This document shows positions 5,836 through 29,860 of a stretch of DNA of 64,000 bases, piece after piece. Numbering within the stretch: the first letter of the stretch is position 1; each line of letters opens with the position of its first letter. Origin of the DNA: Alcaligenaceae bacterium (lineage in GTDB: Bacteria > Pseudomonadota > Gammaproteobacteria > Burkholderiales > Burkholderiaceae_B); contig JAUNUJ010000006.1 of assembly GCA_030538235.1 (NCBI GenBank), positions 17,699 through 81,698 on the forward strand, written 5' to 3'. The position numbers and the translations under genes were made by a program. Under the pieces are notes generated by a model that ran no database searches, was not told the DNA's origin, and saw only the letters and a program-made list of their open reading frames with translations.

Positions 5836-6763
5836 CTTGACCTTCCTGTGGTGAGGCCAGTTGGTCAAGGGACTTACTTAACCAGCGGTACATAACTTTT
5901 AATTGCTTGTCCCACAACGGTATTTGGTGATCAAGGGCTTCATAATAGCGTAGACGACCGGCTTTTCCTAATAAGCATTGCTCTGCTTGATGACTAAAAT
6001 CTCTGGGATGCAGAATGTCTTCGTGAAATAAGAAAATAACCCAACTTTCTATTGCCGGACGTAATGGTTCTGTCAGATCACAAGCTAAAGAATGCCTACC
6101 ATGACTAAGACGATGATAAAAACCAAGCCTTGAATCCATTCCTACAGCGATAGCGTGGCGAACAGCTAAATTATGTGCCATCACATAGGATAATGATAAA
6201 ACCGCATTAACCGGGTCTTTGGGAGGGCGACGATTACGGTGAGTGAATTGCAGGGCAGGAGAGGTATATTGGCGTAAAACCTCAAACGCTCGTTGTTGCA
6301 AGGCGCCTTCGATACCGCGGATTTTTTGTTCAGTTATATCAGCTTGTTGCAAAGCAACTAGAGCGCTTTGGGCAAAATCACTCGCCTGACCAAAATGACT
6401 ACTTAACTCACGTTGGCAACGTTTGAATTTCGCTGCACAGAGTGATTGTATAAGTGGGAGTCGCATGCTCTCATTACTCTGCAGCTCATACTGCACTAAA
6501 CGGCGTTTTAATTGTAACGCTTCATCAGCAAATAAAGAAAAGCTGTGTGCATAATAACGTTGATTAATAACGATTAGGTCAATACCGCGTTTTTTTAATT
6601 GACCAATCAGTTGAGTGCTTAAGCGCACATTATGCATACAAACCAATTGCGTGATATGCCTTAAAGGAATCGTGCGTGGCGACTCGTTTTCTGTGCGCAC
6701 AATAATGCAGTCGGTGCTGTACTCGAGCTCCGTGTTGCGTCGGTCAATAATCATCTGCGACAT
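5828..6763 (-). CDS. cas1: Cas1 integrase
   Basis: RGIEG, RNRRPPKDPVNAVLSLSY, LGFYH, SLACDLTEPLRP motifs. Confidence 0.95.
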   Translation of the reverse strand: MSQMIIDRRNTELEYSTDCIIVRTENESPRTIPLRHITQLVCMHNVRLSTQLIGQLKKRGIDLIVINQRYYAHSFSLFADEALQLKRRLVQYELQSNESMRLPLIQSLCAAKFKRCQRELSSHFGQASDFAQSALVALQQADITEQKIRGIEGALQQRAFEVLRQYTSPALQFTHRNRRPPKDPVNAVLSLSYVMAHNLAVRHAIAVGMDSRLGFYHRLSHGRHSLACDLTEPLRPAIESWVIFLFHEDILHPRDFSHQAEQCLLGKAGRLRYYEALDHQIPLWDKQLKVMYRWLSKSLDQLASPQEGQDA

Positions 6764-6774
6764 GTCAAAACATC

Positions 6775-7077
6775 CTATTTAATCACGAGCAAACCGTTAA
6801 GATTGATGAGTTTATTGCCTCCTAGACGATGTGTTTTTAGGGTTTTTGTGGTGCAAACAATAAGTAATTTATCGCTTTCTTCATCTATGCAATCACAGGC
6901 AAAGAGTGCGATTTCGTGCATTTGTCTCTCATCAGCTCGAAATTCAAAGAAGGACTTTTGACGACTGAGTGCTGTTTTTTGTAATTCGCGGCATAACTTG
7001 CTACGCTGTGCATTGGAGTGCATATCATAAGCTAATAACCAGTGCTCTTTATAACTACTAAAAAAGTCATTGTTCAT
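6775..7077 (-). CDS. cas2: Second, divergent Cas2-like protein (start uncertain: 7077, 7110 or 7164)
   Basis: WLLAYDMHSNAQRSKLCRELQKTALSRQKSFFE parallels the Cas2 AYD...R...L......QxSxFE pattern; immediately upstream of cas1. Confidence 0.7.
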   Translation of the reverse strand: MNNDFFSSYKEHWLLAYDMHSNAQRSKLCRELQKTALSRQKSFFEFRADERQMHEIALFACDCIDEESDKLLIVCTTKTLKTHRLGGNKLINLNGLLVIK

Positions 7078-7335
7078 GTTTAATTTCCCGAGAATTACCC
7101 TAGTCTCCATTAAATCAGTTTTTCTTTTTTTAGTGATGGATGATAAGCTTGTGGAATTGTGCATTTGAGGTTTCGGCTCGGGAGATGATAAGCTCGGCTA
7201 AATTGCTTTTAATGAGCACGGCGATAGACTAAGAAACTAAATACCTTTGGTTTTTTAAAATAAACAAATTCCTCTGATTTTCTCGCTATCATAATCAAAA
7301 GCCTTCCCCCAATATTCATTGTTTTCGAGAGTTCC

Positions 7336-7746
7336 ATGCCCCATTTAAGAATCGAGTACTCAAAAAACCTGGACAGTAAACTAGATATTCAAGCGCTATG
7401 TGATGCGTTACTGCAAACAAGTTTAAGCCAGACCGACGCACAGGGTCAGTCTGTATTCCCTGTTGCCGGTACCCGTGTCTTCGCATATCCGGCAAGCTAT
7501 TATGCGGTTGCCGATGGCGGTAGCGAGCGGGCCTTTATTTATATCAATATACGAATTATTGCAGGGCGTCCACCGAGTCTTATCAAGCAAATTGGAGATG
7601 ATTTATCAGCCGTGCTGAGTGATTTTTTGAGCTCTCACTATAAGACTGAAACGATTGCTTATAGCTTGCAGATTGATGAGGGGGCAGAGGTTTATGATAA
7701 TAAGGGCGGTAATCTACGCAGCATCAGCTTTGCTGTCCGTAATTAA
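7336..7746 (+). CDS. 5-carboxymethyl-2-hydroxymuconate isomerase family (tautomerase fold)
   Basis: N-terminal MPH (catalytic Pro1), EYS.NL, GTRV, YAVADG, I.AGR motifs. Confidence 0.8.
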   Translation: MPHLRIEYSKNLDSKLDIQALCDALLQTSLSQTDAQGQSVFPVAGTRVFAYPASYYAVADGGSERAFIYINIRIIAGRPPSLIKQIGDDLSAVLSDFLSSHYKTETIAYSLQIDEGAEVYDNKGGNLRSISFAVRN

Positions 7747-7757
7747 GTAGCTCTTCG

Positions 7758-7789
7758 ACGATGAGAGCGGTGTCCGTATCTCTCATCGT
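7758..7789. terminator. Hairpin between convergent genes
   Basis: ACGATGAGAG...CTCTCATCGT 10-bp inverted repeat. Confidence 0.45.
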
Positions 7790-7809
7790 TCAGTAGTTTA
7801 GTAGCTGTT

Positions 7810-8979
7810 TTAGTCTTTGACTCGTGGCCTTACTGCAAGGCCCGGGTTGTTGATAAATATACGATAAAAAATCGGTATATAAATGCCAAAGGCAAGAGCC
7901 AGTAGTAGACCGGGCAAATGAAACACAAACAAGACAAAATAATCCCTACTGAGTGCACCGAATGAGCGACTTAGGGCCGCCGCAAAAACACATGCTATGG
8001 CCAAGCGACTAAGCCCAGGATAGTAAAGTGCTAAGCTGCTATGTGAAATACCGGCGATAGTAAAGACTTGCATCATCATTAATAGAAAGCCACCAATCAT
8101 GATCAGATGTAATGCCGGGGTGATAGAGCCTAAGGATAAAATAGTCGTTGCGCCCAACCAGACATAGCCTACGCCGATAGTTGCCAGTGTCAGGTAATAC
8201 CAACGGATATAGTATTGTGTCAGTAATACGCGATAGTGCCAATCACGCAATCGACCTAAGATGGCCATTCCAACCGCAACGCTCATCCAAGCACTACTAA
8301 GGGGATTATCGAGGAAGATTTCACTGGCGACAAACAAATAGATAAACCAAAGCGATAGGTTTTTGTAAAAGGGATTCGGTATAAATCGACACGCCGCCAA
8401 AGCGGTATTTTCTAAGGCCGTATTGCCAATCGATTTACCAATCCTAAAGGTAATTAAGGCGACCCCCGCAATAAAAATATGCGCTATTTGTCTAAGCCAA
8501 AATAAACTTGGTTCATAGACATAGCATAGGTTTAGTACAGCTATGGTAAATAGTAAGACCATCACACTGATGATATTGTGGTCACGTGCTTTGATTGAAA
8601 ATAATAAGACGATAGTACTTAAGCTGAGCCAGAATAAACCAAAAGCAATGCCAGCCAGGATCGGTGCAAAGATCGTACTTAACGCACCGCTCAGCCAGAG
8701 GATAAATAGGCTAAAGCTATAGGGTATCAAGCGACGATTATCGTGTGTCCATTCCGGAATCGCAGTCAGGATAAAACCGGCAAAACCCGCACCGCCGGCA
8801 ATATTTAAAAAAGCATAGGCGTGCAATGAGATAGGATCGATGGCGAATGGATAGATTCCTTGTACCACTGAAGGCCAGATAGCGGCAATTAGGATGACAC
8901 TAAAGGCAGACAACAAAAAGTTCAAACGAAAGGGGAAACTAAAAAAATCCTTGATCACCTCAGTGAATGATTTATTCAT
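7810..8979 (-). CDS. nnrS: NnrS family membrane protein
   Basis: PFRL.FL, HAYAF, AGF.LTAIPEWT, HL..IGG motifs; ATG at 8979 overlaps the ATPase stop. Confidence 0.75.
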   Translation of the reverse strand: MNKSFTEVIKDFFSFPFRLNFLLSAFSVILIAAIWPSVVQGIYPFAIDPISLHAYAFLNIAGGAGFAGFILTAIPEWTHDNRRLIPYSFSLFILWLSGALSTIFAPILAGIAFGLFWLSLSTIVLLFSIKARDHNIISVMVLLFTIAVLNLCYVYEPSLFWLRQIAHIFIAGVALITFRIGKSIGNTALENTALAACRFIPNPFYKNLSLWFIYLFVASEIFLDNPLSSAWMSVAVGMAILGRLRDWHYRVLLTQYYIRWYYLTLATIGVGYVWLGATTILSLGSITPALHLIMIGGFLLMMMQVFTIAGISHSSLALYYPGLSRLAIACVFAAALSRSFGALSRDYFVLFVFHLPGLLLALAFGIYIPIFYRIFINNPGLAVRPRVKD

Positions 8980-9670
8980 GGTAGGCCTGCCAATAACCTT
9001 GTTGTAAATAATTTTTGATAAAAACCTCATCCCGTTCATTGAGTGGAGTATCAAATTCAATCATGTCACGGCAGCTAGCCGGTTTTTGTTTTAATAAATA
9101 AATTCGGTGTGAGAGTTTTAAGGCTTCAAATCGATCGTGTGTGACCATCACAATTGCCATGCCATTTTCTACTAATTCCCGAATCCAGTCGTAAATACTG
9201 AGTTTAAGCTCGTAATCCAGCGCTGAAAAAGGCTCGTCTAATAGCAGCAAATCCGGCTTATTCAATAAGGCTCGGGCCAGAGCCGTGCGTTGACGCATAC
9301 CGCCAGAAAGCTCTTTGGGGTATTTTTGCCAGTCACTTTCTTGAAGGTGTAAGCGTTGTAAGATACTGGCGGCTTGCTCCTGAACCTGAGACTGTTTGGC
9401 ATCTTTTGCCGTCAATAAGATATTGTCCCAAAGGCTTAACCAGGGCAGTAGTCGATGCTCTTGGAACAGGTAGCTTAGCGTTGTAAAGTGATTGCGCATA
9501 CGACCACTATCGTAATCAATTAGACCTGCAATCACACGTAATAGGGTGGTTTTGCCACATCCCGAAGGGCCATATAAACAGGCAACTTCACCCGGCGCCA
9601 CACGAAGATCGACCTGTTCAATAATATCCTCACCCATCAGACTGAGGGAGACTTGTTCAAGCGTCAGCAT
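8972..9670 (-). CDS. ABC transporter ATP-binding protein (NitT/TauT type)
   Basis: Walker A GPSGCGKT, signature LSGGM, Walker B LLLLDEPF. Confidence 0.92.
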   Translation of the reverse strand: MLTLEQVSLSLMGEDIIEQVDLRVAPGEVACLYGPSGCGKTTLLRVIAGLIDYDSGRMRNHFTTLSYLFQEHRLLPWLSLWDNILLTAKDAKQSQVQEQAASILQRLHLQESDWQKYPKELSGGMRQRTALARALLNKPDLLLLDEPFSALDYELKLSIYDWIRELVENGMAIVMVTHDRFEALKLSHRIYLLKQKPASCRDMIEFDTPLNERDEVFIKNYLQQGYWQAYHE

Positions 9671-10468
9671 TTATTGCTCCCAAGGCATAAAAATAATTCT
9701 TAGCGGTTCGATAATTAGATATTCAACAATAAAAATCATGCCTAAAATAACCACCACATAAGCTAAAACCGTTTCGGTATCCAACATGGCACGAGCCATG
9801 GCTAATTGGGCACCTAAGCCATTATTAGCCCCCAGTAATTCAGCCATGATGGCGATTTTTATGCCGGTACCCAAAGCCACACTCACCGCCGGTAATAAGT
9901 GGTTAAGTAAGTGCGGAAAATATAAATTCTTTAACTGCTTGCTAAAAGAAACCCGATAGACATCAAGCATTTCCTTGAGTCCTTCGTCCACGCTCAGCAT
10001 GCCACGCATAGCGGCAGCAAAGGTGAGGGGAATCACGGTAATAATAATAGTAAATATCGCACTTTGAGACCCCATGCCGAACCAAAATAAAGCTAACACC
10101 ACCCAGATAATCGGTGGCATGCCTAATAAGACACTGATGCACGGTCGAAAAAATAGTCCCAAACTCTTAAAGGAACCGGCCAACAGCCCTAGACTAATCC
10201 CTATGACTAAGGCGGTAGCAATGCCGACACTGGCACGATAGATGGTGATGGGAATATCATGTGCGGATAGGTTCTGTAAAATAATCCCTACCGTTTTAAA
10301 AACAGCTAAGGGCTCGGGGAGCACCAGAGGGCCTAAGTGATTAGCGGCGATTTGCCAGATAGCGAGAATAATCGCCAGCACGGCCCCCGAACTAAAGGCG
10401 CCCCACAAATAATATCCCGCTTGCGCAACACCATTTCTGCGCAAGGGGCGGCTTGAATCTAAAATCAT
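9671..10468 (-). CDS. ABC transporter permease (NitT/TauT type)
   Basis: Multiple TM helices, PPIIW motif, operon context. Confidence 0.9.
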   Translation of the reverse strand: MILDSSRPLRRNGVAQAGYYLWGAFSSGAVLAIILAIWQIAANHLGPLVLPEPLAVFKTVGIILQNLSAHDIPITIYRASVGIATALVIGISLGLLAGSFKSLGLFFRPCISVLLGMPPIIWVVLALFWFGMGSQSAIFTIIITVIPLTFAAAMRGMLSVDEGLKEMLDVYRVSFSKQLKNLYFPHLLNHLLPAVSVALGTGIKIAIMAELLGANNGLGAQLAMARAMLDTETVLAYVVVILGMIFIVEYLIIEPLRIIFMPWEQ

Positions 10469-10527
10469 GCAATATCCATCAGAACGGTTTCTGTATCGCT
10501 ATGGCAGTAAGCGTGACAGGCATCTTG

Positions 10528-11493
10528 TTAGGCAAAGAGTCGGTTATCTGGTAGTTTGCCGCCGACAATTTTGGGGTTTAACTCATAAAGCGTGTTAAAA
10601 AAGGTGAGAATGTCGTCTTCAATGGTTTTTGCAGGTTCAACGACCAAATTGGCGTAGGGCAATGAGGTCTCGATCGCTTTTGCAGGGGCCGGGATAAGTC
10701 GACTACCAAGCTTAGCGGCTTCTTCGAGATGGCTTTGGCTCCAGACCAGTGCCTCAGTCAAGTCCTTATGTAATGCAGATAAGAATTCTTGATGCTGTTC
10801 ATAAAAGCCTTGACTCACTAATAAACCCGCTTGCGGGATACCGGTATGAGTTTGGCTGGCTTGCTCCCAAGCCCGTTGTACATCGAAAACCCGCTCGATA
10901 CGTTGCCCACTTTGTTGACCGCGCATAATAGCCAAACTAGCTAAGGGTTCCGGTAGCAGTGCGAGCTCGGCCTTGTTATGGAGAAATAGGGCTAGTGCTT
11001 CCGGTGGTGTGGCCGTGTATTGAATATTTAACTCACTGAAATTAATCCCTTCTTTTTGACAAAGCGCCTGCAAAATAAGATCAGGCATGTCATTTTTGTA
11101 GGGAATAACAATTGTTTTACCTAGTAAGTCACCCACTGAATTAAGAGTATCCTCACGGCCGAGGAATTGCAGCAAGCCTTTGGTCATAATATTCACTAAT
11201 TTAACGTTCTGGCCGCGCGCTGATAAATTGGCCGCGACATAACTGGGGACGATACTTAAATCAATAGATTGATTGGCTAATCCGGCACGTAAGACATCAA
11301 CGTCACGCCAAACGTCGGCTTGCCAGGGCTGTATTTTAGTGGACTGGCCACGCTTTGCAGTGACCTCCAGTAATAATGTCGGCAGCACAAGAGGCCCATA
11401 GATCGTTAATTCCGGCTTTTTAGCTAATAAAGAGGGAGCGTATGCGATTGCAGCCATAGCACCAAGTAACTTGAGAGTGGATCGTCTGTCCAT
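10528..11493 (-). CDS. ABC transporter substrate-binding protein with Tat-like signal
   Basis: MDRRSTLKLLG twin-arginine signal; NMT1/TauA-like layout; first gene of the operon. Confidence 0.85.
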   Translation of the reverse strand: MDRRSTLKLLGAMAAIAYAPSLLAKKPELTIYGPLVLPTLLLEVTAKRGQSTKIQPWQADVWRDVDVLRAGLANQSIDLSIVPSYVAANLSARGQNVKLVNIMTKGLLQFLGREDTLNSVGDLLGKTIVIPYKNDMPDLILQALCQKEGINFSELNIQYTATPPEALALFLHNKAELALLPEPLASLAIMRGQQSGQRIERVFDVQRAWEQASQTHTGIPQAGLLVSQGFYEQHQEFLSALHKDLTEALVWSQSHLEEAAKLGSRLIPAPAKAIETSLPYANLVVEPAKTIEDDILTFFNTLYELNPKIVGGKLPDNRLFA

Positions 11494-11524
11494 AATGTGT
11501 GTATTATCTGATTGTAAATTAATT

Positions 11525-11563
11525 AAAAATGATTATCTATAAATGCTAATGAGAATCAGTCTT
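11525..11563. promoter_or_regulatory. Two tandem Fur-box-like sites
   Basis: 11545-11563 GCTAATGAGAATCAGTCTT is 14/19 and 11525-11543 is 13/19 against GATAATGATAATCATTATC. Confidence 0.55.
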
Positions 11564-11644
11564 ATTTGTTATTATTTCATAAATTGAAGTAAAAACGTGA
11601 TTTTCCATCTTAAAAGTAGGGACAATACTTTGCGTTATATCAAA

Positions 11645-11663
11645 CTTTATGTCTTATATGATG
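11645..11663. promoter_or_regulatory. Partial copy of the TCTTATGTCTTATATAAGA operator
   Basis: CTTTATGTCTTATATGATG, 14/19 with a 13-nt exact core TTATGTCTTATAT. Confidence 0.4.
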
Positions 11664-11760
11664 GATTTAAAATATACCTATAGCAATGAGTGACTTTCTT
11701 GTACTGTTGGAAGCGCAGTTCTATCATGAGTAAGAGTTTCATTGAGATGAAGGAATTAGA

Positions 11761-12351
11761 ATGAGCAAACAAGCGGAATACTTCCACGAAAAATATGGCA
11801 TCACTAAAACCCATTCGGCTGTGGTTGATGCGATGGCGCATGTGGCGCCATGCAAAGCCTTAGATTTGGGCTGTGGCCAAGGGCGTAATGCGCTCTACTT
11901 GGCGTTACAAGGGTTTGATGTCACTGCTAGCGATTACAACCCAGGCGGCTTGGGAAGTATTGAGGCGATGGCTCAGGCCGAGGATTTGCGGGTGCGCACA
12001 GAGGTTTATGATATGAATCAGGCCGCAATCAATGAGCACTATGACTTTATGATTGCTACAGTTGTCTTTATGTTTTTAAATGCTCAGCGTGTGCCGGATA
12101 TCATTGCCAATATGAAGGAGCAAACCCAAGCCGGTGGTTATCACTTAATCGTCTCCGCCATCGATACTGAGGACTATCCTTGTCATATGCCATTTTCATT
12201 TACCTTTAAAGAAAATGAACTAGGTGATTACTATCAGGATTGGCAATTAATCGAGTACAAAGAAGAGGTGGGTTCGATGCACGCACGTGATGCGCAAGGT
12301 CAACCGATTCAATTAAAGTTCGTGACCATGTTGGCGCAAAAGCCGATTTAA
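11761..12351 (+). CDS. tehB: SAM-dependent methyltransferase TehB
   Basis: YFHEKYG.TKTHS, ALDLGCGQGRN, GGYHLIV, F.F.FKENEL motifs. Confidence 0.9.
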   Translation: MSKQAEYFHEKYGITKTHSAVVDAMAHVAPCKALDLGCGQGRNALYLALQGFDVTASDYNPGGLGSIEAMAQAEDLRVRTEVYDMNQAAINEHYDFMIATVVFMFLNAQRVPDIIANMKEQTQAGGYHLIVSAIDTEDYPCHMPFSFTFKENELGDYYQDWQLIEYKEEVGSMHARDAQGQPIQLKFVTMLAQKPI

Positions 12352-12587
12352 GTAGACGGTATCGGCGTCTGATCTAAAGGCGCCTCGCAAACCTCAAGGC
12401 AGCGAATTTATTGATACAGGACTTGAATGGCAGAGGAGCAGCGACATAAAAGCGTCGAATACTGAAGTTAAATGCCGCTTGAAAGGTTTTCTCTTTGTTA
12501 TTAAACAATGACCTTGTGTTTTTTGACAGAAAAGCCGGGTATTTATCGTCAAAGATCTATAACTTTCCTAAGGACGGAGCAGCAATA

Positions 12588-13205
12588 ATGTATTACGGTG
12601 AACGGTTTAACAGTATTTCTCATTTGAGCGGTGCAGTCCTAGCGCTGGTTGGCATGGTGCTATTGATTGTGCTCGGAGCGCAGGCCGGAGACCCATGGAA
12701 GATCGTGGGTTTTAGTATTTACGGCTCGATGCTGCTTTGCTTATATCTTGCATCGACTTTTTATCATAGCTTTCGTGGTCGGGCCAAGGAAATTTGGTGC
12801 AAATTTGATTATTGCACAATATATTTGTTGATTGCCGGTAGCTATACACCCTTGGCTTTGGTCAGTTTACGTGGTGCTTGGGGTTGGTCACTATTTGGTG
12901 TGGTTTGGGGCTTGGCAATCTTCGGTATTATCCAGGAGATTTGGTTGGCTCGTGGCAAGCGAATTTTATCGATGGTGCTTTATGTACTGATGGGTTGGTT
13001 GGTTGTTATTGCCATTGGCCCATTGAGGGATGCCTTGGGTAGTGCCGGCTTTTTATGGTTACTGGCCGGGGGACTCGCTTATACCGTCGGTATTGTGTTT
13101 TATGTTAATGACACTCGCTGGCGCCATGCGCACGGGATCTGGCATCTCTTTGTATTGGCAGGGAGTGCGTGTCACTATGTGACCATGGCGTTTTATGTGG
13201 CTTGA
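12588..13205 (+). CDS. trhA: Hemolysin III / PAQR family membrane protein
   Basis: ERFNSISHL, AST.YH, D...IYLLIAGSYTP, HGIWHLFV motifs. Confidence 0.9.
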   Translation: MYYGERFNSISHLSGAVLALVGMVLLIVLGAQAGDPWKIVGFSIYGSMLLCLYLASTFYHSFRGRAKEIWCKFDYCTIYLLIAGSYTPLALVSLRGAWGWSLFGVVWGLAIFGIIQEIWLARGKRILSMVLYVLMGWLVVIAIGPLRDALGSAGFLWLLAGGLAYTVGIVFYVNDTRWRHAHGIWHLFVLAGSACHYVTMAFYVA

Positions 13206-13350
13206 GCTTGGGGTTTTTAAAACGATGGATTTTGTGGCTTAAGCATTAAGCAGTTCAAGTGGCGATTTAAAGCCTCAAGTTAATTGAACGAATAGTCAAA
13301 GCAGCAAGGGCTTAGTTAATGTCGGTATTTAGAATCAAAACTTAACATAA

Positions 13351-13642
13351 GAGCACAAAGAATATGCTCACCTCGATCAATTGCTTGGAGCATATTTCAA
13401 TCAAGACTACGCTCTTTTTTTGGAACAGATGACATAGAATTTGTGCTTGATTTTATGTTAAAGATAATTCAGCAGAATACTTGTACCAATTAATGAAGGA
13501 AATAGCTGATTTTGAATTGAAGTATGTTGACTGCGTAGATGAGGAATTTGAAAAAATCTTCGATCCTGATCTATGTTTTGACGATGTGCAGGGCTTCCTC
13601 GATATAGTCAAAGAGAAGGTTCAGAAACAGCTAGAGGTTTAA
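13351..13642 (+). pseudogene. Frameshifted CdiI-like (contact-dependent inhibition immunity) gene remnant
   Basis: Restoring one T each at the T7 run (13415-13421) and T4 run (13451-13454) gives EYAHLDQLLGAYFNQDYALFFGTDDIEFVLDFYVKDNSAEYLYQLMKEIADFELKYVDCVDEEFEKIFDPDLCFDDVQGFLDIVKEKVQKQLEV*; no start codon. Confidence 0.55.
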
Positions 13643-13732
13643 ACCTAAATTTAAACATAAAAAGGGGGGCACTCTGTATACATCAAGATGATGAGGCTGG
13701 GAAATCCTCCCAAGCTCTCAATAGTATATTAG

Positions 13733-13748
13733 ATGTATTAGACATTTA
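13733..13748 (+). repeat. Left copy of 16-bp direct repeat ATGTATTAGACATTTA
   Basis: Exact match to 19078-19093. Confidence 0.85.
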
Positions 13749-14007
13749 GACACAGCTAAACCCTCCTTTTTAACTGTCTCTGACCTTAGCAGATTAACCG
13801 GTCAAGTTAATTGTCGCTCTATATAGAGATAAGTATTTATGTTACGGGTACTTTTAAACCTCTAAAATTCATAACACGCTAACCAAGTGTTAACAGACTG
13901 GATTGGATTTCATGACCATCAATACTCACTCTGTCCTTGGGCATAAGGTCACCCATTGAGGTCTGAGAGGCTTTAGCGACATAACGTGTTTAGAAAATGT
14001 TGACTCA

Positions 14008-15495
14008 TTACAAAATTTCTGACGTCTTAGTAGACGGAATACTCGTCATTTCGCACGCCTTTGCCCCGACACGTTCGATAGCTGAACGATATTTCTCATT
14101 GAATGGATAACAACAAGAAATTCGTAATGCATTCTTATAATCCGATTTGGGTGAATACAATGCGCCGGGCGTGAGAGATATCTTCTCTTTAAGCATCGCC
14201 CTGTGCAACTCTACTGTATCAATATTTCCTGGTATTTCTACCCAAAAAACAAAGCCTCCTTGTGGCTTTGTTGTACGAGTTCCAACAGGAAAGTGTCTGG
14301 CGATTAAAGACAGCGCTTGATTCATATTCTCCTTGTAATGCTTACGTAATTTTCGCAAGTGATGATCATACCCACCGGTTTCTAAAAACTGAGCAATGGT
14401 TTCACTTAATAATTTGGATTCTGTCATCGAAAGTTGTTTTTTTAATCGCTGTATCTGACGACTGTAACGACCAGCGCATATCCATCCGATTCGGAAATCT
14501 GGTGCGAGAGTTTTAGTAAAACTTGAGCAAAAAATAATCCAGTTGTCACGATCAAAGGCTTTTACGGCAGGCAAGGTTTGATCAAATTGCAGCTCACAAT
14601 ACAACCCATCTTCTATCAGAGGAACCTGATATTGATTAACTAACTGTGCTAATCGTTGTTTCGATTTAAGGGGCATACTACAACCGAGTGGGTTGTGTAA
14701 ATTTGGCATACACACAATGGCTTGAATCTGCTTTTTCTTCATCAACACTTCAAGGGTATCAACCGATAAACCTGTTTCGGCGTTTGTGGGAATTTCGATT
14801 ACACGTAAACCCAATGTCGCTAGTAGCGGTATTAAATAAAAATAGGTAGGTGATTCTAGGGCCACACAATCGCCTGCTTTAGTGGTCGCTAAAAGTGCCA
14901 AATGGAGTGCGTCTAAGCAACCATGCGTAATGGTGATTTCATCAATATCAATAACGGCACCGACATCTAGCATACGTCTGGCTATTTGATGCCGTAAATT
15001 AAGACTGCCTGGCGGCAACGCATACTCACAGATGATATTGGGTTGGCGACGTAAGGTCTGTCTCAAAATTTTACTTAACTTTTCACTTGGATAAAATTCA
15101 GAATCATGAGTTGGACAAGCTAGAGAGATATTCGTGAAGTCTGGGTTTTGTTGAGTAGCAAAGGTTGTTTCAATTAACCTCAATACGCTTTGGTCAGGAG
15201 GGGCACTGGCACTGTCTGTAGAAAGCGTTCGTTTAAGTCTAGGCGGTTGATTGCACACATAAAAGCCAGACTGCGGACGAGCCTGTATCAATCCCTGGTC
15301 CTCCAGATGACGGTATGCAGCAACGACTGTATTAATACTGATCGCATAAGTTTTTGCCGTATCTCTTATCGAAGGAAATCTTGTGCCAGCTTTAAAAGTA
15401 CCTAAACTTATCGCTTGGCTTAATTTTTTACTTAGTTTCAGATACAGAGGTTTATTTTTCGAATCTTGTTGGTAAAAAAGGTGAGCATTAGGCAC
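14008..15495 (-). CDS. MocR/GabR family regulator (GntR wHTH plus PLP aminotransferase-like domain)
   Basis: PSIRDTAKTYAISINTVVAAYRHLEDQGLI HTH; NPLG, IEDGLY, SFTKTLAPDFRIGW; GTG start with AGGAG RBS. Confidence 0.93.
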   Translation of the reverse strand: MPNAHLFYQQDSKNKPLYLKLSKKLSQAISLGTFKAGTRFPSIRDTAKTYAISINTVVAAYRHLEDQGLIQARPQSGFYVCNQPPRLKRTLSTDSASAPPDQSVLRLIETTFATQQNPDFTNISLACPTHDSEFYPSEKLSKILRQTLRRQPNIICEYALPPGSLNLRHQIARRMLDVGAVIDIDEITITHGCLDALHLALLATTKAGDCVALESPTYFYLIPLLATLGLRVIEIPTNAETGLSVDTLEVLMKKKQIQAIVCMPNLHNPLGCSMPLKSKQRLAQLVNQYQVPLIEDGLYCELQFDQTLPAVKAFDRDNWIIFCSSFTKTLAPDFRIGWICAGRYSRQIQRLKKQLSMTESKLLSETIAQFLETGGYDHHLRKLRKHYKENMNQALSLIARHFPVGTRTTKPQGGFVFWVEIPGNIDTVELHRAMLKEKISLTPGALYSPKSDYKNALRISCCYPFNEKYRSAIERVGAKACEMTSIPSTKTSEIL

Positions 15496-15898
15496 AATTA
15501 ACTCCTTTTAGGTAGTCGCTGTTGAATTATTTGTTAACTGTACCCATGACAATAGCCCATTACTGCTACTGTTTCAATTAAGAGATTTAGATTATTCTTA
15601 AATAGTAGTTGTGAAATTAGAGAAGTAACACTTAATAAATCTCCTTAACCATGTGTTTTCACAATTCAGTTATTTTGGCTTGTGCCTTTTTAGGTAAGTC
15701 TACGTTGATAGATTATTGAAAATTTTTATTTTTATATTTGATTGTTTAGTAGACGATTACCCTTCAGTACCTAAGATAGATGGTCTATTTACTAATGTAC
15801 TTTAGCGATATTTACCAGACAATTACTATTCTTTAATATTTAACTATGATGAGTTCACTCAGATTTCTTAGACTGCAATAATCATTAGGAGCTAACTT

Positions 15899-16798
15899 AT
15901 GACTAACCTGCTAAGTTATACAGGTAATACTCCAATTATAAAGATTGAGAATATATTTTATCCAGATAAGGCTGATATTTTTGTGAAATTAGAAGAGTTC
16001 AATCCTGGAGGAAGTGTTAAATCAAGACCAGGTGTACATATGGTTCTTGATGCACAGGAAAAAAAGCTGCTAACAAAAGACAAGATTTTACTCGAACCGA
16101 CAGGAGGTAATACCGGGTTGGGTATAACTATCGCTGCTGTTTCTCTAGGATATAAAGTGCATTTAGTTATTCCGGATAATTTCAGCAAAGATAAAATTAA
16201 AAATTTAGAAAGCTATGGTGCCAAAATTATATTATCTGATCATACAACAGGTCCGGGGTCCCATGTTAGATTGGCTAATCAGATATTAGAGTCTGAAAAT
16301 AAGTATATATGTTTAGACCAATTCTCTAACCCTGCAAATCCTATGTCACATTATTTAACTACAGGTCCAGAAATAATCAACCAATTAAAAATACGCAAAG
16401 TTGATGCATTTATTGCAGGTATTGGAACTGGAGGAACTTTGATGGGGGTTGGTAAATATTTAAAAGGAATTAACGCTAACATCAAAATTATTGGTGTCCA
16501 ACCAGAGGGTTGTGATTTCATGAATAATATATTCATCCCACATAAAATCGAAGCGATTGCCGTTGGCTTTATTCCTCCAATAGTTGATTTGGAAATGATT
16601 GATCATATGATAAGTGTAGATTTTTATGAGGTGATGGAATTAAGAGATTGGCTGAGTAAAAAAATGGGCCTTTTTGTTGGTATTTCATCAGGTGCAAATA
16701 TTCTTGCTGCTCTTAAAGAAGCAGCTAAATATCCAAAAGGAAAATTTATTATTACAGTAGCACCAGATAGTGGTAGGAGCTATATAGCTTATGAGTAA
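15899..16798 (+). CDS. Cysteine synthase family PLP enzyme, variant
   Basis: GNTP, KLEEFNPGGSVKSR (PLP Lys), EPTGGNTG, DQFSNPAN, GIGTGGT, GISSGAN, PDSG. Confidence 0.9.
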   Translation: MTNLLSYTGNTPIIKIENIFYPDKADIFVKLEEFNPGGSVKSRPGVHMVLDAQEKKLLTKDKILLEPTGGNTGLGITIAAVSLGYKVHLVIPDNFSKDKIKNLESYGAKIILSDHTTGPGSHVRLANQILESENKYICLDQFSNPANPMSHYLTTGPEIINQLKIRKVDAFIAGIGTGGTLMGVGKYLKGINANIKIIGVQPEGCDFMNNIFIPHKIEAIAVGFIPPIVDLEMIDHMISVDFYEVMELRDWLSKKMGLFVGISSGANILAALKEAAKYPKGKFIITVAPDSGRSYIAYE

Positions 16799-17450
16799 GT
16801 TTCAGGATATATCTCTGCTTTCTATTTCTGATGAGGAACTTATCCTTTCAAAGGTAGTTGGTGTGCTAAGCAAATTTGGTATTTATTATTTAAGCAGGCA
16901 AGAAATTCTTGAAATATGTTCTGCCTTGAATACGGATATGAATGCCTTCTTACAGAAAGACCCCTCAACAAAAAACGATAGCAAAAGTTTTTTGTTATCA
17001 TTTTCTTCTTTTGATGCAGTCATTGGTTATCGAATAGCTCACCATATATTAGATCACTATGAAAAAACAGTCGATTCAAAAAAAATATCAGAATACTTTA
17101 AGATTAAAACTGGTATTGAAATACACTCTGCTGCCGTAATAGGTCATAGCTTTGTCATTGACCATGGAGTTGGTACAGTAATAGGAGAAACCTGTGTTAT
17201 AGGAAATAATTGCTATTTCTTACAACAAATCATCTTAGGTTCTTCTCAAATTGCTTTTAATAATCAAGAGAGTAGACACCCCATTATTGGGAATAATGTT
17301 GAAATAGGCGGATTTGCTCGAATTTTTGGAAAGGTACGTATTGGTAATAATGTAAAAATTGCTCCTCATTCTATTATCAGAGTCGATATTCCTGATAACA
17401 GCTCAGTAATCATGGAAAGTAATGAACAAAAAATCGTTTTGAGAGACTAA
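16791..17450 (+). CDS. Serine O-acetyltransferase-like protein
   Basis: DP, YRIAH, GIEIH, IDHGVGTVIGET, RHPIIG hexapeptide repeats; start overlaps the upstream stop. Confidence 0.85.
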   Translation: MSKFQDISLLSISDEELILSKVVGVLSKFGIYYLSRQEILEICSALNTDMNAFLQKDPSTKNDSKSFLLSFSSFDAVIGYRIAHHILDHYEKTVDSKKISEYFKIKTGIEIHSAAVIGHSFVIDHGVGTVIGETCVIGNNCYFLQQIILGSSQIAFNNQESRHPIIGNNVEIGGFARIFGKVRIGNNVKIAPHSIIRVDIPDNSSVIMESNEQKIVLRD

Positions 17451-18298
17451 TGAAGAATTTATTGTTTTTCTTGACACTTTTCTTCATTACCTGTTTAGCA
17501 ACTGGCGGAATATTTGTAAAGCTTAGTGAATTAGGGCCTGTTACAACAGGATTTTATAGAGTTCTATTTAGTATCCCGATGCTATATCCTTTGCTAAGGA
17601 TGGAAAAAAATTTTTCTTTGTCTATAAAAGATAAAGTGGTGATATTTATTGCTGGCATGTTCCTTGCTGGAGACTTAATTTTATGGAACATTTCTTTCCA
17701 CTACACTACAGTTGCTAACGCAAATTTATTAGCAAATTTAGTGCCATTTACGATTATTCCTTCAGCATATTTTTTCTACAAAGAGAAAGTATCTCGTAAT
17801 TTTTTATTCAGCTTGATTGTTACGTTAATTGGCTTAATCATCTTAATTAACGGCAAGGTTAACCCTAGTCAAAGCAATTTGTATGGCGATATGCTGGCAT
17901 TTGCTACATCTATTTTTTATGCGGCATTTTTACTTATTGTCTATAAGGTAAGAAGGCAAGCATCAGCAATACAGATTATGTATTACAGTGGATATGGGGC
18001 TATGGTAATACTACTTATAAGTAGCATTGTAATGGAAGGTGTGACTTATCCAACTAATTTTCAAACCTTATGGCCACTACTAGGGTTGGCAGTTTTTTCT
18101 CAAATATTAGGTCAAGGAGGACTTAGCTATGTTTTAGGTAAGATCTCCGTCAATTTAGCGGCTGTTCTTGTTTTAACACAGCCAGTCATTTCAGCAATTT
18201 TATCTTATTTTATTTTTCATGAAACCTTATCCATACAAGAGATGTTAGGCCTCTTTATTGTGCTAATGGGTATCTTTTTAGTAAAAAAAGAGCATTAA
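17450..18298 (+). CDS. EamA/DMT family exporter
   Basis: About 10 TM helices in two EamA-like halves; TAATG stop-start overlap. Confidence 0.88.
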   Translation: MKNLLFFLTLFFITCLATGGIFVKLSELGPVTTGFYRVLFSIPMLYPLLRMEKNFSLSIKDKVVIFIAGMFLAGDLILWNISFHYTTVANANLLANLVPFTIIPSAYFFYKEKVSRNFLFSLIVTLIGLIILINGKVNPSQSNLYGDMLAFATSIFYAAFLLIVYKVRRQASAIQIMYYSGYGAMVILLISSIVMEGVTYPTNFQTLWPLLGLAVFSQILGQGGLSYVLGKISVNLAAVLVLTQPVISAILSYFIFHETLSIQEMLGLFIVLMGIFLVKKEH

Positions 18299-18319
18299 TT
18301 TATATTAAAGGATGAACCA

Positions 18320-19066
18320 ATGCGCGCAACAATAAAACGTTATTATGAAGACACGGATGTAATTAGCTGTAAAGCTAAAATCCTTAAGATCCATGAGTCG
18401 GCGATAGAACTCGATCAGACGATAGCTTATCCAGAAGGGGGTGGCCAAGAAGGTGATCATGGTTGGATTCGTTTATGTGCTGATCCTAGCATGGCTATTG
18501 CATTTAACGATACTCAACTTAGCATGGCTACACCTGTTTTTATCGACGATTTTCCTAGCGTCAAAACAGGTGGGATTATATTGCACCATATTTCAAATAA
18601 AGATCGTTTGATTGACTTCGAGATTGGTGATGAAGTGTGGATAGAAATTGATCAGCAGCGCCGAAAAAGTATGTCTTTAAATCATACCGCCGCTCATATT
18701 GTTTACTGGGCTGTTGATATGTATCTACCTAGTGTGGTGGATCATACCATTGGTTGTCATATAAAAACTGATAGTGCTAGGCTAGATTTTGCAACTGAAG
18801 ATCGATTTAGTCAAGAAGACATAAATGAAATTGAGGAATTGAGTAATAAACTAATTAAAGCTGGACACCCAATCATTATGCGTTCACGACAAGATTATTA
18901 CGATGTGCGTTATTGGGAATGCGATGGTTACGTGATTCCCTGTGGAGGCACGCATGTCAAAAATACGAATGAACTTTCTTTACTGAAATTACAACGAAAA
19001 AACATTGGAAAAGGTAAAGAGCGCCTTATCTTTTCGCTCCAGAATCCAACTGAAGTTGAACGATAA
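18320..19066 (+). CDS. Free-standing alanyl-tRNA editing protein (AlaX family)
   Basis: LDQTIAYPEGGGQ.GD, zinc motifs HTAAH and CGGTH, ARLDF. Confidence 0.88.
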   Translation: MRATIKRYYEDTDVISCKAKILKIHESAIELDQTIAYPEGGGQEGDHGWIRLCADPSMAIAFNDTQLSMATPVFIDDFPSVKTGGIILHHISNKDRLIDFEIGDEVWIEIDQQRRKSMSLNHTAAHIVYWAVDMYLPSVVDHTIGCHIKTDSARLDFATEDRFSQEDINEIEELSNKLIKAGHPIIMRSRQDYYDVRYWECDGYVIPCGGTHVKNTNELSLLKLQRKNIGKGKERLIFSLQNPTEVER

Positions 19067-19077
19067 TTTCGTTTTAT

Positions 19078-19315: not shown

Positions 19316-19409
19316 TGGCGGGAACGGAGGGATTCGAACCCTCGATACAGGTTTAAGCCCGTATGCTTCCTTAGCAGGGAAGTACCTTCAGCCTCTCGGT
19401 CACGTTCCC
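19316..19409 (-). tRNA. tRNA-Ser(GCT)
   Basis: GGGAACG/CGTTCCC acceptor stem, CTTCC-CT-GCT-AA-GGAAG anticodon arm, long variable arm, GTTCGAATC, encoded CCA. Confidence 0.95.
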
Positions 19410-19478
19410 AAAGAATTTATAATTATATAGTTAAATAGTAATTTTAGCTAGCTAATTCGAGTATAAAGTTAAAATTTA

Positions 19479-20741
19479 TTACTCTTCTGTTGTATTGTTA
19501 CCTAGATCAAAGGCTTGATGTAGGGCACGAACCGCCAGTTCCATGTATTTGTCTTCGATTAGCACTGAGGTTTTGATTTCGCTGGTGCTGATCATCTGGA
19601 TATTGACACCTTCATTGGATAAGGTGCTGAACATCTTACTGGCAACACCGGCGTGAGAGTGCATGCCGATACCTACGATAGATACTTTACAGACTTTATC
19701 ATCAGTAATTACTTCGCGAGCATCGATATTTTTTAATACAACCTCGTTGATCACTTTGATCGCTTGCTTGAAGCCGGCGCGGTTAACGGTAAATGAGAAG
19801 TCTGTGGTGCCGTCGACTGACTGGTTTTGAATAATCATATCAACATCGATATTGGCATCAGCGATAGGGCCAAGAATGCCGTAAGCAATGCCCGGACGAT
19901 CAGGGACACCTAGGATAGTAATTTTGGCTTCATCGCGGCTGAACGCGATACCGGAAACAACAGCAGCTTCCATACTTGGATCTTCCTCAATAGTAATTAG
20001 GGTGCCTGAAATAATTTCTTCTTCGACAGGAATTTCAGGATCGGTTAATGATGATAAAACACGTAGCGGCACTTTGTATTTACCGGCAAACTCCACCGCG
20101 CGAATTTGTAACACTTTGGAGCCTAAGGAGGCCATTTCCAGCATTTCTTCAAAAGAAATCACACTCATGCGGCGCGCCTCAGGCACCACGCGAGGGTCTG
20201 TGGTATAAACGCCGTCCACATCGGTAAAAATTAAGCACTGCTCAGCGCCAATGGCAGCAGCAATCGCAACTGCGGAGGTGTCTGAACCACCACGGCCCAG
20301 GGTGGTGATATGACCATTTGGGTCAATGCCCTGAAACCCAGTCACAATAATCACTTTACCGGCGTCTAAATCGCCTTGTATGCGGCTGCCATCAATCTCT
20401 TTAATACGCGCCTTAGTAAAGGCACTATCGGTTTTAACCGGCACTTGCCACCCGGTGTAACTACGGGCATCAATGCCTTGGGCTTGTAGAGCAATCGCGA
20501 GGAGGGCGCTACTAGCTTGTTCGCCGGTGGCGGCTAACATATCGAGTTCACGGGGATCAACGTTGTCAGAGAGATCGTTGGCTAAACCTAATAAGCGATT
20601 GGTTTCACCGGCCATTGCTGAAGGGACGACAACCACTTGATGTCCTGCCCTGTGCCACTTGGCAACACGCTTAGCAACATTTTGAATGCGTTCAACAGAA
20701 CCCATAGAGGTGCCGCCGAACTTTTGTACGATTAGGGACAT
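19479..20741 (-). CDS. lysC: Aspartate kinase
   Basis: VQKFGGTSMG, TTLGRGGSDTSA, DVDGVYTTDPR, two ACT domains. Confidence 0.97.
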   Translation of the reverse strand: MSLIVQKFGGTSMGSVERIQNVAKRVAKWHRAGHQVVVVPSAMAGETNRLLGLANDLSDNVDPRELDMLAATGEQASSALLAIALQAQGIDARSYTGWQVPVKTDSAFTKARIKEIDGSRIQGDLDAGKVIIVTGFQGIDPNGHITTLGRGGSDTSAVAIAAAIGAEQCLIFTDVDGVYTTDPRVVPEARRMSVISFEEMLEMASLGSKVLQIRAVEFAGKYKVPLRVLSSLTDPEIPVEEEIISGTLITIEEDPSMEAAVVSGIAFSRDEAKITILGVPDRPGIAYGILGPIADANIDVDMIIQNQSVDGTTDFSFTVNRAGFKQAIKVINEVVLKNIDAREVITDDKVCKVSIVGIGMHSHAGVASKMFSTLSNEGVNIQMISTSEIKTSVLIEDKYMELAVRALHQAFDLGNNTTEE

Positions 20742-28633: not shown

Positions 28634-29860
28634 TTACAAACTCTTGATAAAGTTACCTAGATTACGGATACCTTCTTGGATTTTATCCTCAGAGACCGTC
28701 ACAAAGCTTAAACGCAGATTGTTTTTAGGGGCATTATTGAGATCTGTATAAAATGGCATGCCAGGGACATAAGCAACCTTGCACTGCTCAACTACTTCGG
28801 GCAGGATGGCTGCGGTGTCAATATGCTCCGGTACGCTGGCCCAGATAAACATGCCGCCGGTCGGATGAGTCCATTTGCAGCTCTCAGGGAAGTGCTCATT
28901 TAATGCATCCAACATAAAGTAGCACTGCTTGCGATAGAGTTCACGGACGGCAGGTAAATGCTCTGCTAGGAAGCCGTCTTTGATCGCTTCGTAGACGGCC
29001 ATTTGTGAAACGGTTTGGGTGTGCAAGTCAGTGGCCTGCTTTAACTGTACCATTTTGTTGATCACTGCAACAGGAGCGACCACATAGCCTATGCGAATGC
29101 CTGGAGCGAGTACCTTAGAAAATGAACCCATACGAATCACTGTGGCACCGGCCTCACGACCTAAGGCTAGTAATGAGGGTAAGTGTTCGCCCTCGAAGCG
29201 CAGTTCGCCATAGGGGTCGTCTTCGATAATAGGCAAACCGTACTTGGCACAGGTCGTCACTAGCTCCTTACGGCGCTCCAACGTCATGGTGATACCAGTC
29301 GGGTTCTGGAAATTGGGAAGCGCGTAAATAAAGCGAGCGTCTTGGGCTTTGTCGGCGGTAATGTCCTGAGGAATCATGCCGAATTCGTCAGTTTCTACGG
29401 TTTCATAACGTGGATTCTGTACCGAAAAAGATTGCAATGCGCCTAAATAAGACGGTGATTCAACCAAAATCTTGGCGCCATCATCAATAAATAGTTTGCC
29501 TAATAAATCCAATGCCTGCTGTGAACCTGAAACAATTAATACCTCTTCGGTTTCAACCTGAACGCCACGCTTAGCAAAGTCTTGTGCGACCCACTCGCGT
29601 AATGGGCGATAGCCCTCGGTCGGACCGTATTGTAGCGCCGCTTCGGGATTTTCAGTTAAGACTTTAGTGAAGGCCTTGAGTAGGGTTTCTTTAGGGAAGC
29701 CTTTGGGCGAAGGTAAACCGCCGGCAAATGAAATCACATCCGGACGCTCCGTGACTTTTAAAATCTCACGAATCACTGAACCGGAAAGATTGATAGCACG
29801 TTGTGAAAATTTGTCCTCTACACGAAACTCAGAGGTTTTTATTTTAATTGAATCGTTCAT
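28634..29860 (-). CDS. PLP-dependent aminotransferase class I (LysN/2-aminoadipate transaminase-like)
   Basis: ISFAGGLP, FQNPTG, EDDPYGEL, GSFSKVLAPGIRIG; no HTH. Confidence 0.85.
   Translation of the reverse strand: MNDSIKIKTSEFRVEDKFSQRAINLSGSVIREILKVTERPDVISFAGGLPSPKGFPKETLLKAFTKVLTENPEAALQYGPTEGYRPLREWVAQDFAKRGVQVETEEVLIVSGSQQALDLLGKLFIDDGAKILVESPSYLGALQSFSVQNPRYETVETDEFGMIPQDITADKAQDARFIYALPNFQNPTGITMTLERRKELVTTCAKYGLPIIEDDPYGELRFEGEHLPSLLALGREAGATVIRMGSFSKVLAPGIRIGYVVAPVAVINKMVQLKQATDLHTQTVSQMAVYEAIKDGFLAEHLPAVRELYRKQCYFMLDALNEHFPESCKWTHPTGGMFIWASVPEHIDTAAILPEVVEQCKVAYVPGMPFYTDLNNAPKNNLRLSFVTVSEDKIQEGIRNLGNFIKSL

Follow-up and report, generated by a model that had tools for sequence, protein, structure and literature searches.

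The 64,000-nucleotide stretch of DNA analysed here (hereafter the window; positions 17,699 to 81,698 of contig JAUNUJ010000006.1, Alcaligenaceae bacterium assembly GCA_030538235.1) contains a cassette in which the gene for a MocR-type regulator is divergent from a tightly coupled operon (15899-19066) encoding a CysK-like enzyme, a serine acetyltransferase (SAT)-like enzyme, an EamA-family exporter and an AlaX-like aminoacyl-tRNA deacylase. This gene arrangement recurs in other genomes far beyond chance and is a real conserved functional unit, and the module is accessory and mobile. Tentatively, it is read as a MocR-controlled accessory route from serine through O-acetylserine to cysteine or a close sulfur analogue, coupled to export and to an AlaX safeguard; on this reading, the module would serve conditional synthesis and export, or overflow, with protection of translation built in, and would not be a housekeeping cysteine supply.

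A gene set conserved beside AlaX-like deacylases

The five open reading frames (ORFs) of the cassette were recovered as placed in the preliminary description of the window, with families assigned by Pfam and NCBIfam (Table 1). Direct reading of the junctions confirmed the operon layout given there: an 8-bp overlap between the CysK-like and SAT-like genes (tATGAGTAA), a TAATG overlap between the SAT-like and EamA genes (gacTAATGaag), and a 21-bp gap holding an AAGGA ribosome-binding site between the EamA and AlaX-like genes. The AT-richness ascribed to the operon was likewise borne out, its guanine-plus-cytosine (GC) content being 34.7% against 41.1% for the MocR gene and 44.0% for the whole window, as was the nearby tRNA-Ser(GCU), which lies 250 bp downstream of the operon and is followed by lysC. 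The encoded LysC is 94% identical to that of Oligella ureolytica and 92% identical to that of O. urethralis; the host is therefore an Oligella species. Among public DNA runs, DNA of the window was found in wastewater metagenomes only, and a look for RNA runs returned none.

The proposal of a dedicated system had been staked in the preliminary description partly on recurrence of the gene set elsewhere, and such recurrence was found. A scan of one genome per species with an alignment of AlaX-like proteins gave 281 relatives. The census was taken on the best 80 of these loci, with genes within 4.6 kb of the AlaX-like gene counted as neighbours. A CysK-fold or SAT-like neighbour was present at 60 of these 80 loci and both were present at 54, accompanied by an exporter at 51 (43 MFS, 5 EamA and 3 AzlCD), a divergent MocR gene at 30 and an AraC gene at 5. 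The commonest layout, MocR divergent from SAT-AlaX-MFS-CysK-fold, was seen in the Pseudomonas putida group, Marinobacter, Kushneria, Paraburkholderia, Dyella and Caballeronia. When every neighbouring ORF in the AlaX-like loci was clustered without prior assumptions, no further conserved partner emerged. Look-ups from the side of the CysK-like enzyme returned MocR divergent from CysK-(SAT pseudogene)-EamA-AlaX in Alcaligenes, CysK-SAT-EamA-AlaX in Bartonella and Campylobacteraceae, MocR divergent from CysK-SAT-AzlC-AzlD-AlaX in Cellulosilyticum, and AlaX divergent from CysK-SAT-methyltransferase-AzlC-AzlD in Salmonella; no module of the Salmonella type was found in E. coli genomes at megablast sensitivity. 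Combined, the 80-locus census and the CysK-side look-ups establish the placement of an AlaX deacylase beside biosynthetic enzymes, a regulator and a transporter as conserved.

The window exporter gave generic matches only, to amino-acid and metabolite exporters, and other genomes have an MFS or AzlCD exporter in its slot. Since one exporter family can stand in for another within an otherwise constant gene set, small-molecule export appears central to the module.

A literature search on the combination of AlaX with cysteine synthase returned Millar et al. 2026 (Nat Chem, PMC13149037) alone. In the account given there, 1,562 stand-alone AlaX genes, or 11% of the main AlaX sequence cluster, lie beside cysteine biosynthetic genes with a co-occurrence above 90%, and this group is classed as primary metabolism with none characterised in that account. 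The same source assigns the cysteine-context AlaX proteins to the large cluster that includes the majority of characterised Ser/Gly-tRNA(Ala) editors and not to the small clusters typical of biosynthetic gene clusters. The window operon evidently belongs to the set of 1,562 and adds a member to a noted, uncharacterised group; the association itself is already published, its mechanism is not, and the label "undescribed" given to the system in the preliminary description has to be withdrawn.

Divergent enzymes and the pathway they may form

The CysK-like enzyme reached none of the NCBIfam cut-offs, scoring 303 bits against 344 for cysKM, 286 against 351 for cysK and 238 against 394 for cysM. It keeps the lysine (K41) for pyridoxal phosphate (PLP) and the G176TGGT and S263SGA motifs, and its asparagine loop reads T68-G69-G70-N71-T72 in place of the canonical TSGNT (a sequence of E. 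coli CysK was used for numbering and for nothing else). Two CysK-fold clades occupy the same slot, at ~300 bits to cysKM for the window type and ~150 bits for the Pseudomonas type, and in both the loop serine has become glycine, in 170 of 170 AlaX-associated proteins (119 TGGNT, 30 TGGNF, 13 TGGSF, 4 SGGNT, 3 TGGNL and 1 SGGNL); TGGNT is found in all 119 members of the window clade. Solved CysK, CysM and cystathionine beta-synthase enzymes read TSGNT, and 5xw3 and 5b1h, the structures nearest to the Pseudomonas-type enzyme, read TAGNT. The substrate carboxylate is clamped by this loop, which also holds the C-terminal Ile of CysE in place (PMC9547175). Both clades were found beside an orthologous methyltransferase-AzlCD sub-module (Salmonella and P. 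cichorii), and therefore presumably catalyse the same step; the methyltransferase of these variants is weakly similar to arsenite/chalcogen-type methyltransferases. The model of the CysK-like enzyme (pLDDT 88.8) has the type II PLP fold and a template-modelling (TM) score of ~0.9 to O-acetylserine sulfhydrylases, and equally of ~0.9 to beta-cyanoalanine, S-methylcysteine and O-acetylserine-dependent cystathionine synthases, such that the fold comparison gave no separation of sulfide-using enzymes from those using other nucleophiles.

The SAT-like enzyme also stays below its NCBIfam cut-offs (132.7 bits against 210.65 for cysE and 122.3 against 150 for the EpsC type). Alignment to solved SATs showed that DP (D57), the catalytic D124-H125 and the serine-binding R162-H163-P are kept; the protein ends in KIVLRD, about 10 residues past the left-handed beta-helix and with no terminal Ile. 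In SATs this C-terminal tail mediates cysteine feedback and formation of the complex with CysK (PMC13040420). Since the tail is missing, no cysteine synthase complex is expected, and the docking loop of the CysK-like enzyme is altered as well. The sub-cut-off scores, the tail-less SAT and the TGGNT loop mark the two enzymes as divergent paralogues, not the housekeeping CysE and CysK, in line with the cysteine synthase variant named in the preliminary description; SAT and CysK activities are predicted for them from sequence.

A variant of the module in Paraburkholderia (L029, L036 and L037, L numbers denoting the loci compared) bears on the product. In these loci, MocR is divergent from an operon with a JAMM/desampylase-like gene, a MoeZ-type ThiF+rhodanese gene and the CysK-fold gene, and a SAT-AlaX pair is convergent to this operon; a carrier-protein gene was not identified in the variant. 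By analogy, the product hinted at by the variant is a sulfur amino acid, for example cysteine, and not an exotic antimetabolite. The earlier proposal of a non-proteinogenic product is consequently only partly sustained: the conserved functional unit that it presupposed is there, while the antimetabolite is disfavoured by the MoeZ/JAMM coupling.

It is nevertheless very unlikely that the module represents ordinary redundant cysteine biosynthesis, as in the primary-metabolism bin of Millar et al., with AlaX merely co-located. This explanation agrees with the best matches of the enzymes (cysKM/cysK and cysE, with the CysK-like enzyme only modestly under its cut-off at 303 against 344), with the sulfur-carrier variant and with the classification published in PMC13149037, so far as that account extends, but it meets an exporter at 51 of the 80 loci, a usual regulator of the MocR and not the CysB type, a SAT without docking tail and an asparagine loop altered in every member. 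Further counts against it are the mobility, low GC and frequent inactivation of the module and a 75% linkage to one AlaX clade, which is unexpected for chance co-location. The published primary-metabolism label thus seems poorly supported by the sequence features of the module.

The AlaX-like protein carries the zinc motifs H122xxxH126 and C208xxxH212, which are invariant in 22 family members. Its AlphaFold model (pLDDT 94.1) matched AlaX-M structures in Foldseek with target-normalised TM scores of 0.88-0.89 (2e1b, 9iuw) and the beta-barrel and editing domains of alanyl-tRNA synthetase with 0.81 (2zze/2zzf/2zzg). The NCBIfam AlaXM score of 118.7 bits against 300 refers to an archaeal equivalog model, and the shortfall mainly reflects divergence. 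Judged by motifs and model, the protein looks like an active deacylase. AlaX is described as hydrolysing predominantly Ser-tRNA(Ala) in the account of PMC11260482.

The regulator gave its best NCBIfam match to a PdxR-like model (275 bits against a cut-off of 320), and an SSFTK motif (Lys328) stands at the expected PLP-lysine position. An NCBIfam lead to YczR was rejected, this being an unrelated MocR subgroup tied to membrane proteins. Within the 403-bp intergenic region, the 70-bp block at 15534-15605 is the sole stretch strongly conserved between the Oligella and Alcaligenes copies, and a candidate MocR operator and a candidate mocR promoter are placed there. A promoter-like site lies at 15577-15549 (-), such sites being no more frequent than chance; promoter and terminator scans did not rise above shuffled expectation, and neither a riboswitch nor a T-box was detected ahead of the window operon or of the Firmicute, Fusobacteria and Campylobacterota variants, where the search returned tRNAs only. 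Elsewhere in the window, the protein encoded at 28655-29779 (-) shares 26% identity with the aminotransferase-fold part of MocR (residues 103-477) and could be an aminotransferase or a further MocR-like gene.

In the pathway tentatively favoured here, MocR would act as a PLP-dependent sensor of an amino compound, in keeping with the amino compounds sensed by MocR regulators as a family, and would turn the operon on. The SAT-like enzyme would convert serine to O-acetylserine and, being tail-less, would be free of CysK docking and of tail-dependent cysteine feedback. The CysK-like enzyme would then swap the acetate for a nucleophile, most likely a sulfur compound, so that cysteine or a closely related S-substituted alanine would form, and the EamA protein would export this product or O-acetylserine. 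During such high pools, the AlaX-like protein would clear tRNAs mischarged with small serine-family amino acids, by default Ser-tRNA(Ala) and possibly product-charged tRNA as well.

Several points weigh against this pathway. The Gly-loop and the very divergent Pseudomonas-type enzyme (~150 bits) suggest that the reaction may be other than plain sulfide incorporation, the sulfur-carrier link is confined to three closely related Paraburkholderia genomes, and MocR is not known to sense sulfur or redox state. The need of a cysteine-type pathway for an AlaX-type editor is not explained by tested fact. Finally, an EF-1alpha/CysN-like GTPase, which the scheme does not predict, occupies the exporter slot at three loci; the proteins have 448-530 amino acids and a very divergent domain, with EF-1alpha (E 8e-8) and CysN (8e-7) as best PDB matches. 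In view of this GTPase, a closer connection of the pathway with translation than supposed so far is conceivable.

Table 1. Positions of the genes and sites discussed (window coordinates unless a locus is named)
Feature	Position	Strand	Remarks
MocR-type regulator	14008-15495	-	Pfam GntR 18-80, Aminotran_1_2 150-475
Candidate MocR operator and mocR promoter	15534-15605	.	Intergenic block by the MocR start; operator putative
CysK-fold PLP beta-replacement enzyme with TGGNT loop (CysK-like)	15899-16798	+	PALP domain
Short SAT-like enzyme without C-terminal regulatory/docking tail	16791-17450	+	Hexapep domain
EamA/DMT-family exporter	17450-18298	+	Two EamA repeats
AlaX-M-type aminoacyl-tRNA deacylase (AlaX-like)	18320-19066	+	tRNA_SAD and tRNA-synt_2c C-terminal matches
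tRNA-Ser(GCU), host gene beside the cassette	19316-19409	-	ARAGORN and Rfam
lysC	19479-20741	-	
Cassette limits (regulator and operon), 5.08 kb	14001-19076	.	Span of DNA identity to other Oligella loci
Paraburkholderia partner genes preceding the CysK-fold gene	L029:9791-11206, 11213-11680	-	
EF-1alpha/EF-Tu/CysN-type GTPase genes	L087:5673-7019, L091:4779-6128, L045:9796-11388		Two Clostridia and a Zoogloea genome

Mobility and decay of the cassette

The cassette of the window shares ~90% DNA identity with Oligella sp. L012/L016 and ~80% with O. urethralis L003. The shared DNA spans exactly 14001-19076, ending about 10 bp or less beyond the stop codons of MocR and AlaX, and the flanks are unrelated among the window, L012/L016 and L003; the genus thus carries the cassette at three separate chromosomal positions. 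The Oligella cassettes always have ~35% GC in a background of 42-44%, and no terminal repeats and no integrase were found at the ends of the window cassette. Further copies lie in an island flanked by integrase and insertion sequence (IS) genes in Salmonella, on a 40-kb plasmid in Xenorhabdus, beside the tmRNA gene in Alcaligenes and near genes resembling those of integrative and conjugative elements in Streptococcus. The window cassette is horizontally acquired, an origin reflected in the low GC and the neighbouring tRNA gene that the preliminary description had remarked on; the unrelated flanks and the GC contrast carry this conclusion. The tRNA-Ser(GCU) itself falls outside the shared cassette, and no tRNA gene consistently linked to the module was found in 56 loci.

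The DNA just upstream of the cassette holds genes for a TehB tellurite-resistance methyltransferase (11761-12351) and a TrhA/hemolysin-III membrane protein (12495-13205). The tehB gene was rejected as a member of the system, since it lies outside the shared cassette and is hence a host gene, as is trhA. The ~800 bp between trhA and the cassette (13206-14000) contain no ORF of at least 60 amino acids and no Rfam match, and could be what is left of the insertion site or of an element that preceded the cassette. Just beyond MocR in Pseudomonas, ARAGORN called a tRNA-like sequence with the four-base anticodon gcca in Pseudomonas juntendi (L072:5522-5600, -) and a tRNA-Ala(GGC) in another Pseudomonas (L063:4896-4973, +); these calls, from 2 of ~20 Pseudomonas loci, may be false positives or attachment-site remnants. 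In O. urethralis L001-L003, the region downstream of the cassette (~19438-20575) encodes a pair of a bacterial RNase A-like toxin and a CdiI_2 immunity protein, which adjoins a TonB-dependent haem/iron uptake cluster.

Comparison of intact copies showed purifying selection on each of the five genes, with ratios of nonsynonymous to synonymous substitution (dN/dS) of 0.05-0.13 and of 0.05 for the CysK-like gene. Within Oligella, several recent events have inactivated the enzyme genes and left MocR, EamA and AlaX intact: L016 has a clean 863-bp deletion, L002 a 1,747-bp deletion, L001 an IS replacement and L012 two frameshifts. The reduced form in L002 (O. urethralis) retains MocR, EamA and AlaX with a 32-residue SAT remnant, and that in L035 (Marinobacter zhanjiangensis) consists of MocR and AlaX alone, which shows that a regulator-editor(-exporter) core can outlive the enzymes. 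Broken genes were also seen in Alcaligenes (SAT) and Gilliamella (CysK/SAT). The AlaX protein does not differ among L001-L003, which makes the Oligella lesions strain-level events with little bearing on long-term selection.

Enzymes and deacylase also part company in other genomes. The Streptococcus and Xenorhabdus-plasmid modules have the enzymes and an exporter without AlaX, and, in a neighbour-joining tree, free-standing AlaX-like genes branch from within the module-linked ones; comparison of the neighbours of the free-standing genes gave an incoherent set. The earlier proposal that AlaX clears the operon's own product from tRNA is weakened by these genomes and by the survival of AlaX and EamA after loss of CysK and SAT.

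Several of these loci have further features. In Streptococcus of the infantarius/suis type (L098/L099), MocR is divergent from CysK-like, SAT (283 residues) and EamA genes; this AlaX-less module is very common, its protein being indexed in 637 blocks, and its flanks, which hold lantibiotic genes and a gene for a ~2,270-residue N6-methylase/SNF2-helicase protein, suggest that it sits in an integrative element. On the plasmid of Xenorhabdus sp. TH1 (L102, NZ_CP147736.1; region 5995-12876), the CysK-like, SAT and DMT-transporter genes are preceded by transposase and recombinase genes and followed by a 1.2-kb unannotated gap, an iron-sulfur L-serine ammonia-lyase gene and a gene for a full-length plasmid-borne valine-tRNA ligase. 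In Salmonella enterica (L096/L097 and L103), the island around the module includes AlpA, integrases, an IS and tRNA-Asn; AlaX is split (171 and 38 residues) in two assemblies and intact on the 473-kb replicon of serovar India.

It is unlikely that the module is a small cluster for an exported non-cysteine beta-substituted alanine, an antimetabolite or signal, with the AlaX-like protein as product-specific immunity. Such a cluster would account for the non-canonical enzymes (sub-cut-off scores, TGGNT loop and tail-less SAT), for a CysK-like fold as near to beta-cyanoalanine and S-methylcysteine synthases as to CysK, and for the variants with an added S-adenosylmethionine-dependent methyltransferase and AzlCD, a family that exports branched-chain or methionine-like amino acids; Salmonella-like hosts, moreover, already own cysE, cysK and cysM. 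Immunity to a particular product, however, is at odds with the retention of AlaX and EamA where the CysK-like and SAT-like genes are deleted, frameshifted or hit by an IS, with free-standing AlaX genes nested among module-linked ones and with modules that lack AlaX, and the Paraburkholderia variant favours sulfur chemistry. Literature precedent points both ways: the architecture is that of the validated alf cluster and the concept that of BesG, so that the preliminary assignment of a non-canonical-amino-acid layout was apt, while the same authors place these AlaX proteins with Ser/Gly-tRNA(Ala) editors (PMC13149037, to the extent of its account). The broader proposition that the ~1,500 "cysteine context" AlaX clusters are a mis-binned mobile pathway, distinct from cysteine biosynthesis, in which Gly-loop CysK-fold enzymes would turn O-acetylserine into a beta-substituted alanine for export, with the AlaX-like protein as dedicated translational immunity, is doubtful but conceivable.

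Survival of exporter and AlaX after enzyme loss would be accounted for by a serine-stress module without a special product, in which MocR induces a serine sink (the SAT-like and CysK-like enzymes), a serine/O-acetylserine exporter and extra Ser-tRNA(Ala) editing. Each protein would then keep its canonical reaction, serine being the sole metabolite common to SAT and AlaX; the L-serine ammonia-lyase gene adjoins the module on the Xenorhabdus plasmid, and MocR regulators sense amino compounds at the family level. This explanation is quite unlikely, however, as the cost in acetyl-CoA and sulfide is high compared with a deaminase, and the universal Gly-loop, the two CysK-fold clades and the methyltransferase and sulfur-carrier variants are left unexplained.

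A mobile, accessory, regulator-controlled unit with an exporter also recalls a resistance cassette, in which cyanide, selenide, a thiol or an azole would be fixed on O-acetylserine by the CysK-like enzyme and the adduct exported, with AlaX guarding the proteins; the preliminary description had raised this option too. The weak likeness of the variant methyltransferase to the arsenite/chalcogen type and the wastewater-like source fit such a nucleophile trap, and a MocR regulator over a cyanide-induced cluster with a CysK homologue provides a precedent (PMC8567248). It is nonetheless highly improbable: neither a nitrilase nor any further gene for downstream detoxification came out as conserved in the neighbour clustering, the mutual independence of AlaX and the enzymes counts here as it does for an antimetabolite, and MocR proteins sense amino compounds, not inorganic nucleophiles.

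If the product is not cysteine, a very common mobile gene set, ranging over Pseudomonas, Paraburkholderia, Marinobacter, Salmonella islands, Streptococcus elements and Oligella, would encode a new amino-acid metabolite with its own proofreading enzyme; if it is cysteine, the puzzle is why a tRNA(Ala)-type editor accompanies accessory cysteine/O-acetylserine export. In both cases, a remark is due in annotation pipelines and on the published assignment to primary metabolism. With four genes and a regulator the system is small, and one species has natural strains with and without the enzyme genes.

Comparison with known systems

Canonical CysE-CysK with EamA (YdeD)-type export, as in E. coli and Salmonella, shares the enzyme folds and the expected O-acetylserine intermediate with the module, whose EamA protein is in the family that includes the O-acetylserine/cysteine exporter. 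The module differs in its lack of the SAT Ile tail, its TGGNT loop, its sub-cut-off scores, its MocR control and its arrangement with AlaX in one mobile operon.

Protein-thiocarboxylate-dependent cysteine synthesis is performed by CysO-CysM-Mec-MoeZ in mycobacteria, and the Paraburkholderia variant resembles this route in combining CysK-fold, MoeZ-type ThiF+rhodanese and JAMM/desampylase-like genes in an operon. In contrast to the mycobacterial route, the variant adds a SAT-AlaX pair and MocR; the MoeZ and JAMM genes are absent from the window.

Among CysK-fold enzymes that use other nucleophiles, the fold of the CysK-like enzyme (TM ~0.9) is like that of beta-cyanoalanine synthase, the S-methylcysteine synthase BSAS4, the O-ureidoserine synthase DcsD, O-acetylserine-dependent cystathionine beta-synthase and SbnA, and its sequence scores showed no preference for any of these enzyme types. 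The loop Gly was not seen in the other-nucleophile enzymes compared; the O-acetylserine-dependent cystathionine synthase-like 5xw3 and 5b1h likewise lack the loop Ser, but read TAGNT. To our knowledge, no AlaX partner has been reported for these enzymes. The cio-cysM3-nit4 cluster of Pseudomonas pseudoalcaligenes, like the module, has a divergent MocR over a cysteine-synthase homologue in a defence context, but it is without SAT, exporter and AlaX and encodes a terminal oxidase and a nitrilase (PMC8567248).

The closest architectural likeness is to clusters for non-canonical amino acids, which AlaX-family deacylases such as BesG and AlfB mark in the account of Millar et al. (PMC13149037). The alf cluster of Alcaligenes faecalis described there combines, as does the module, a regulator, a transporter, a biosynthetic enzyme and an AlaX-family deacylase; its deacylase AlfB and methionine hydroxylase AlfC belong to a pathway that yields free 3R-hydroxymethionine, and in alf, as with BesG of the beta-ethynylserine cluster, the deacylase shields translation from the cluster's free amino acid (PMC13149037). 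Relative to the main text of that study, the present analysis adds the TGGNT loop, the tail-less SAT, the integral exporter and MocR, the interchangeable CysK-fold clades, the mobility and the frequent decay. The chemistry of alf is Fe/alpha-ketoglutarate hydroxylation, whereas O-acetylserine beta-replacement is predicted for the module, and, unlike in alf and the BesG cluster, deacylase and enzymes of the module are each often retained where the other is missing.

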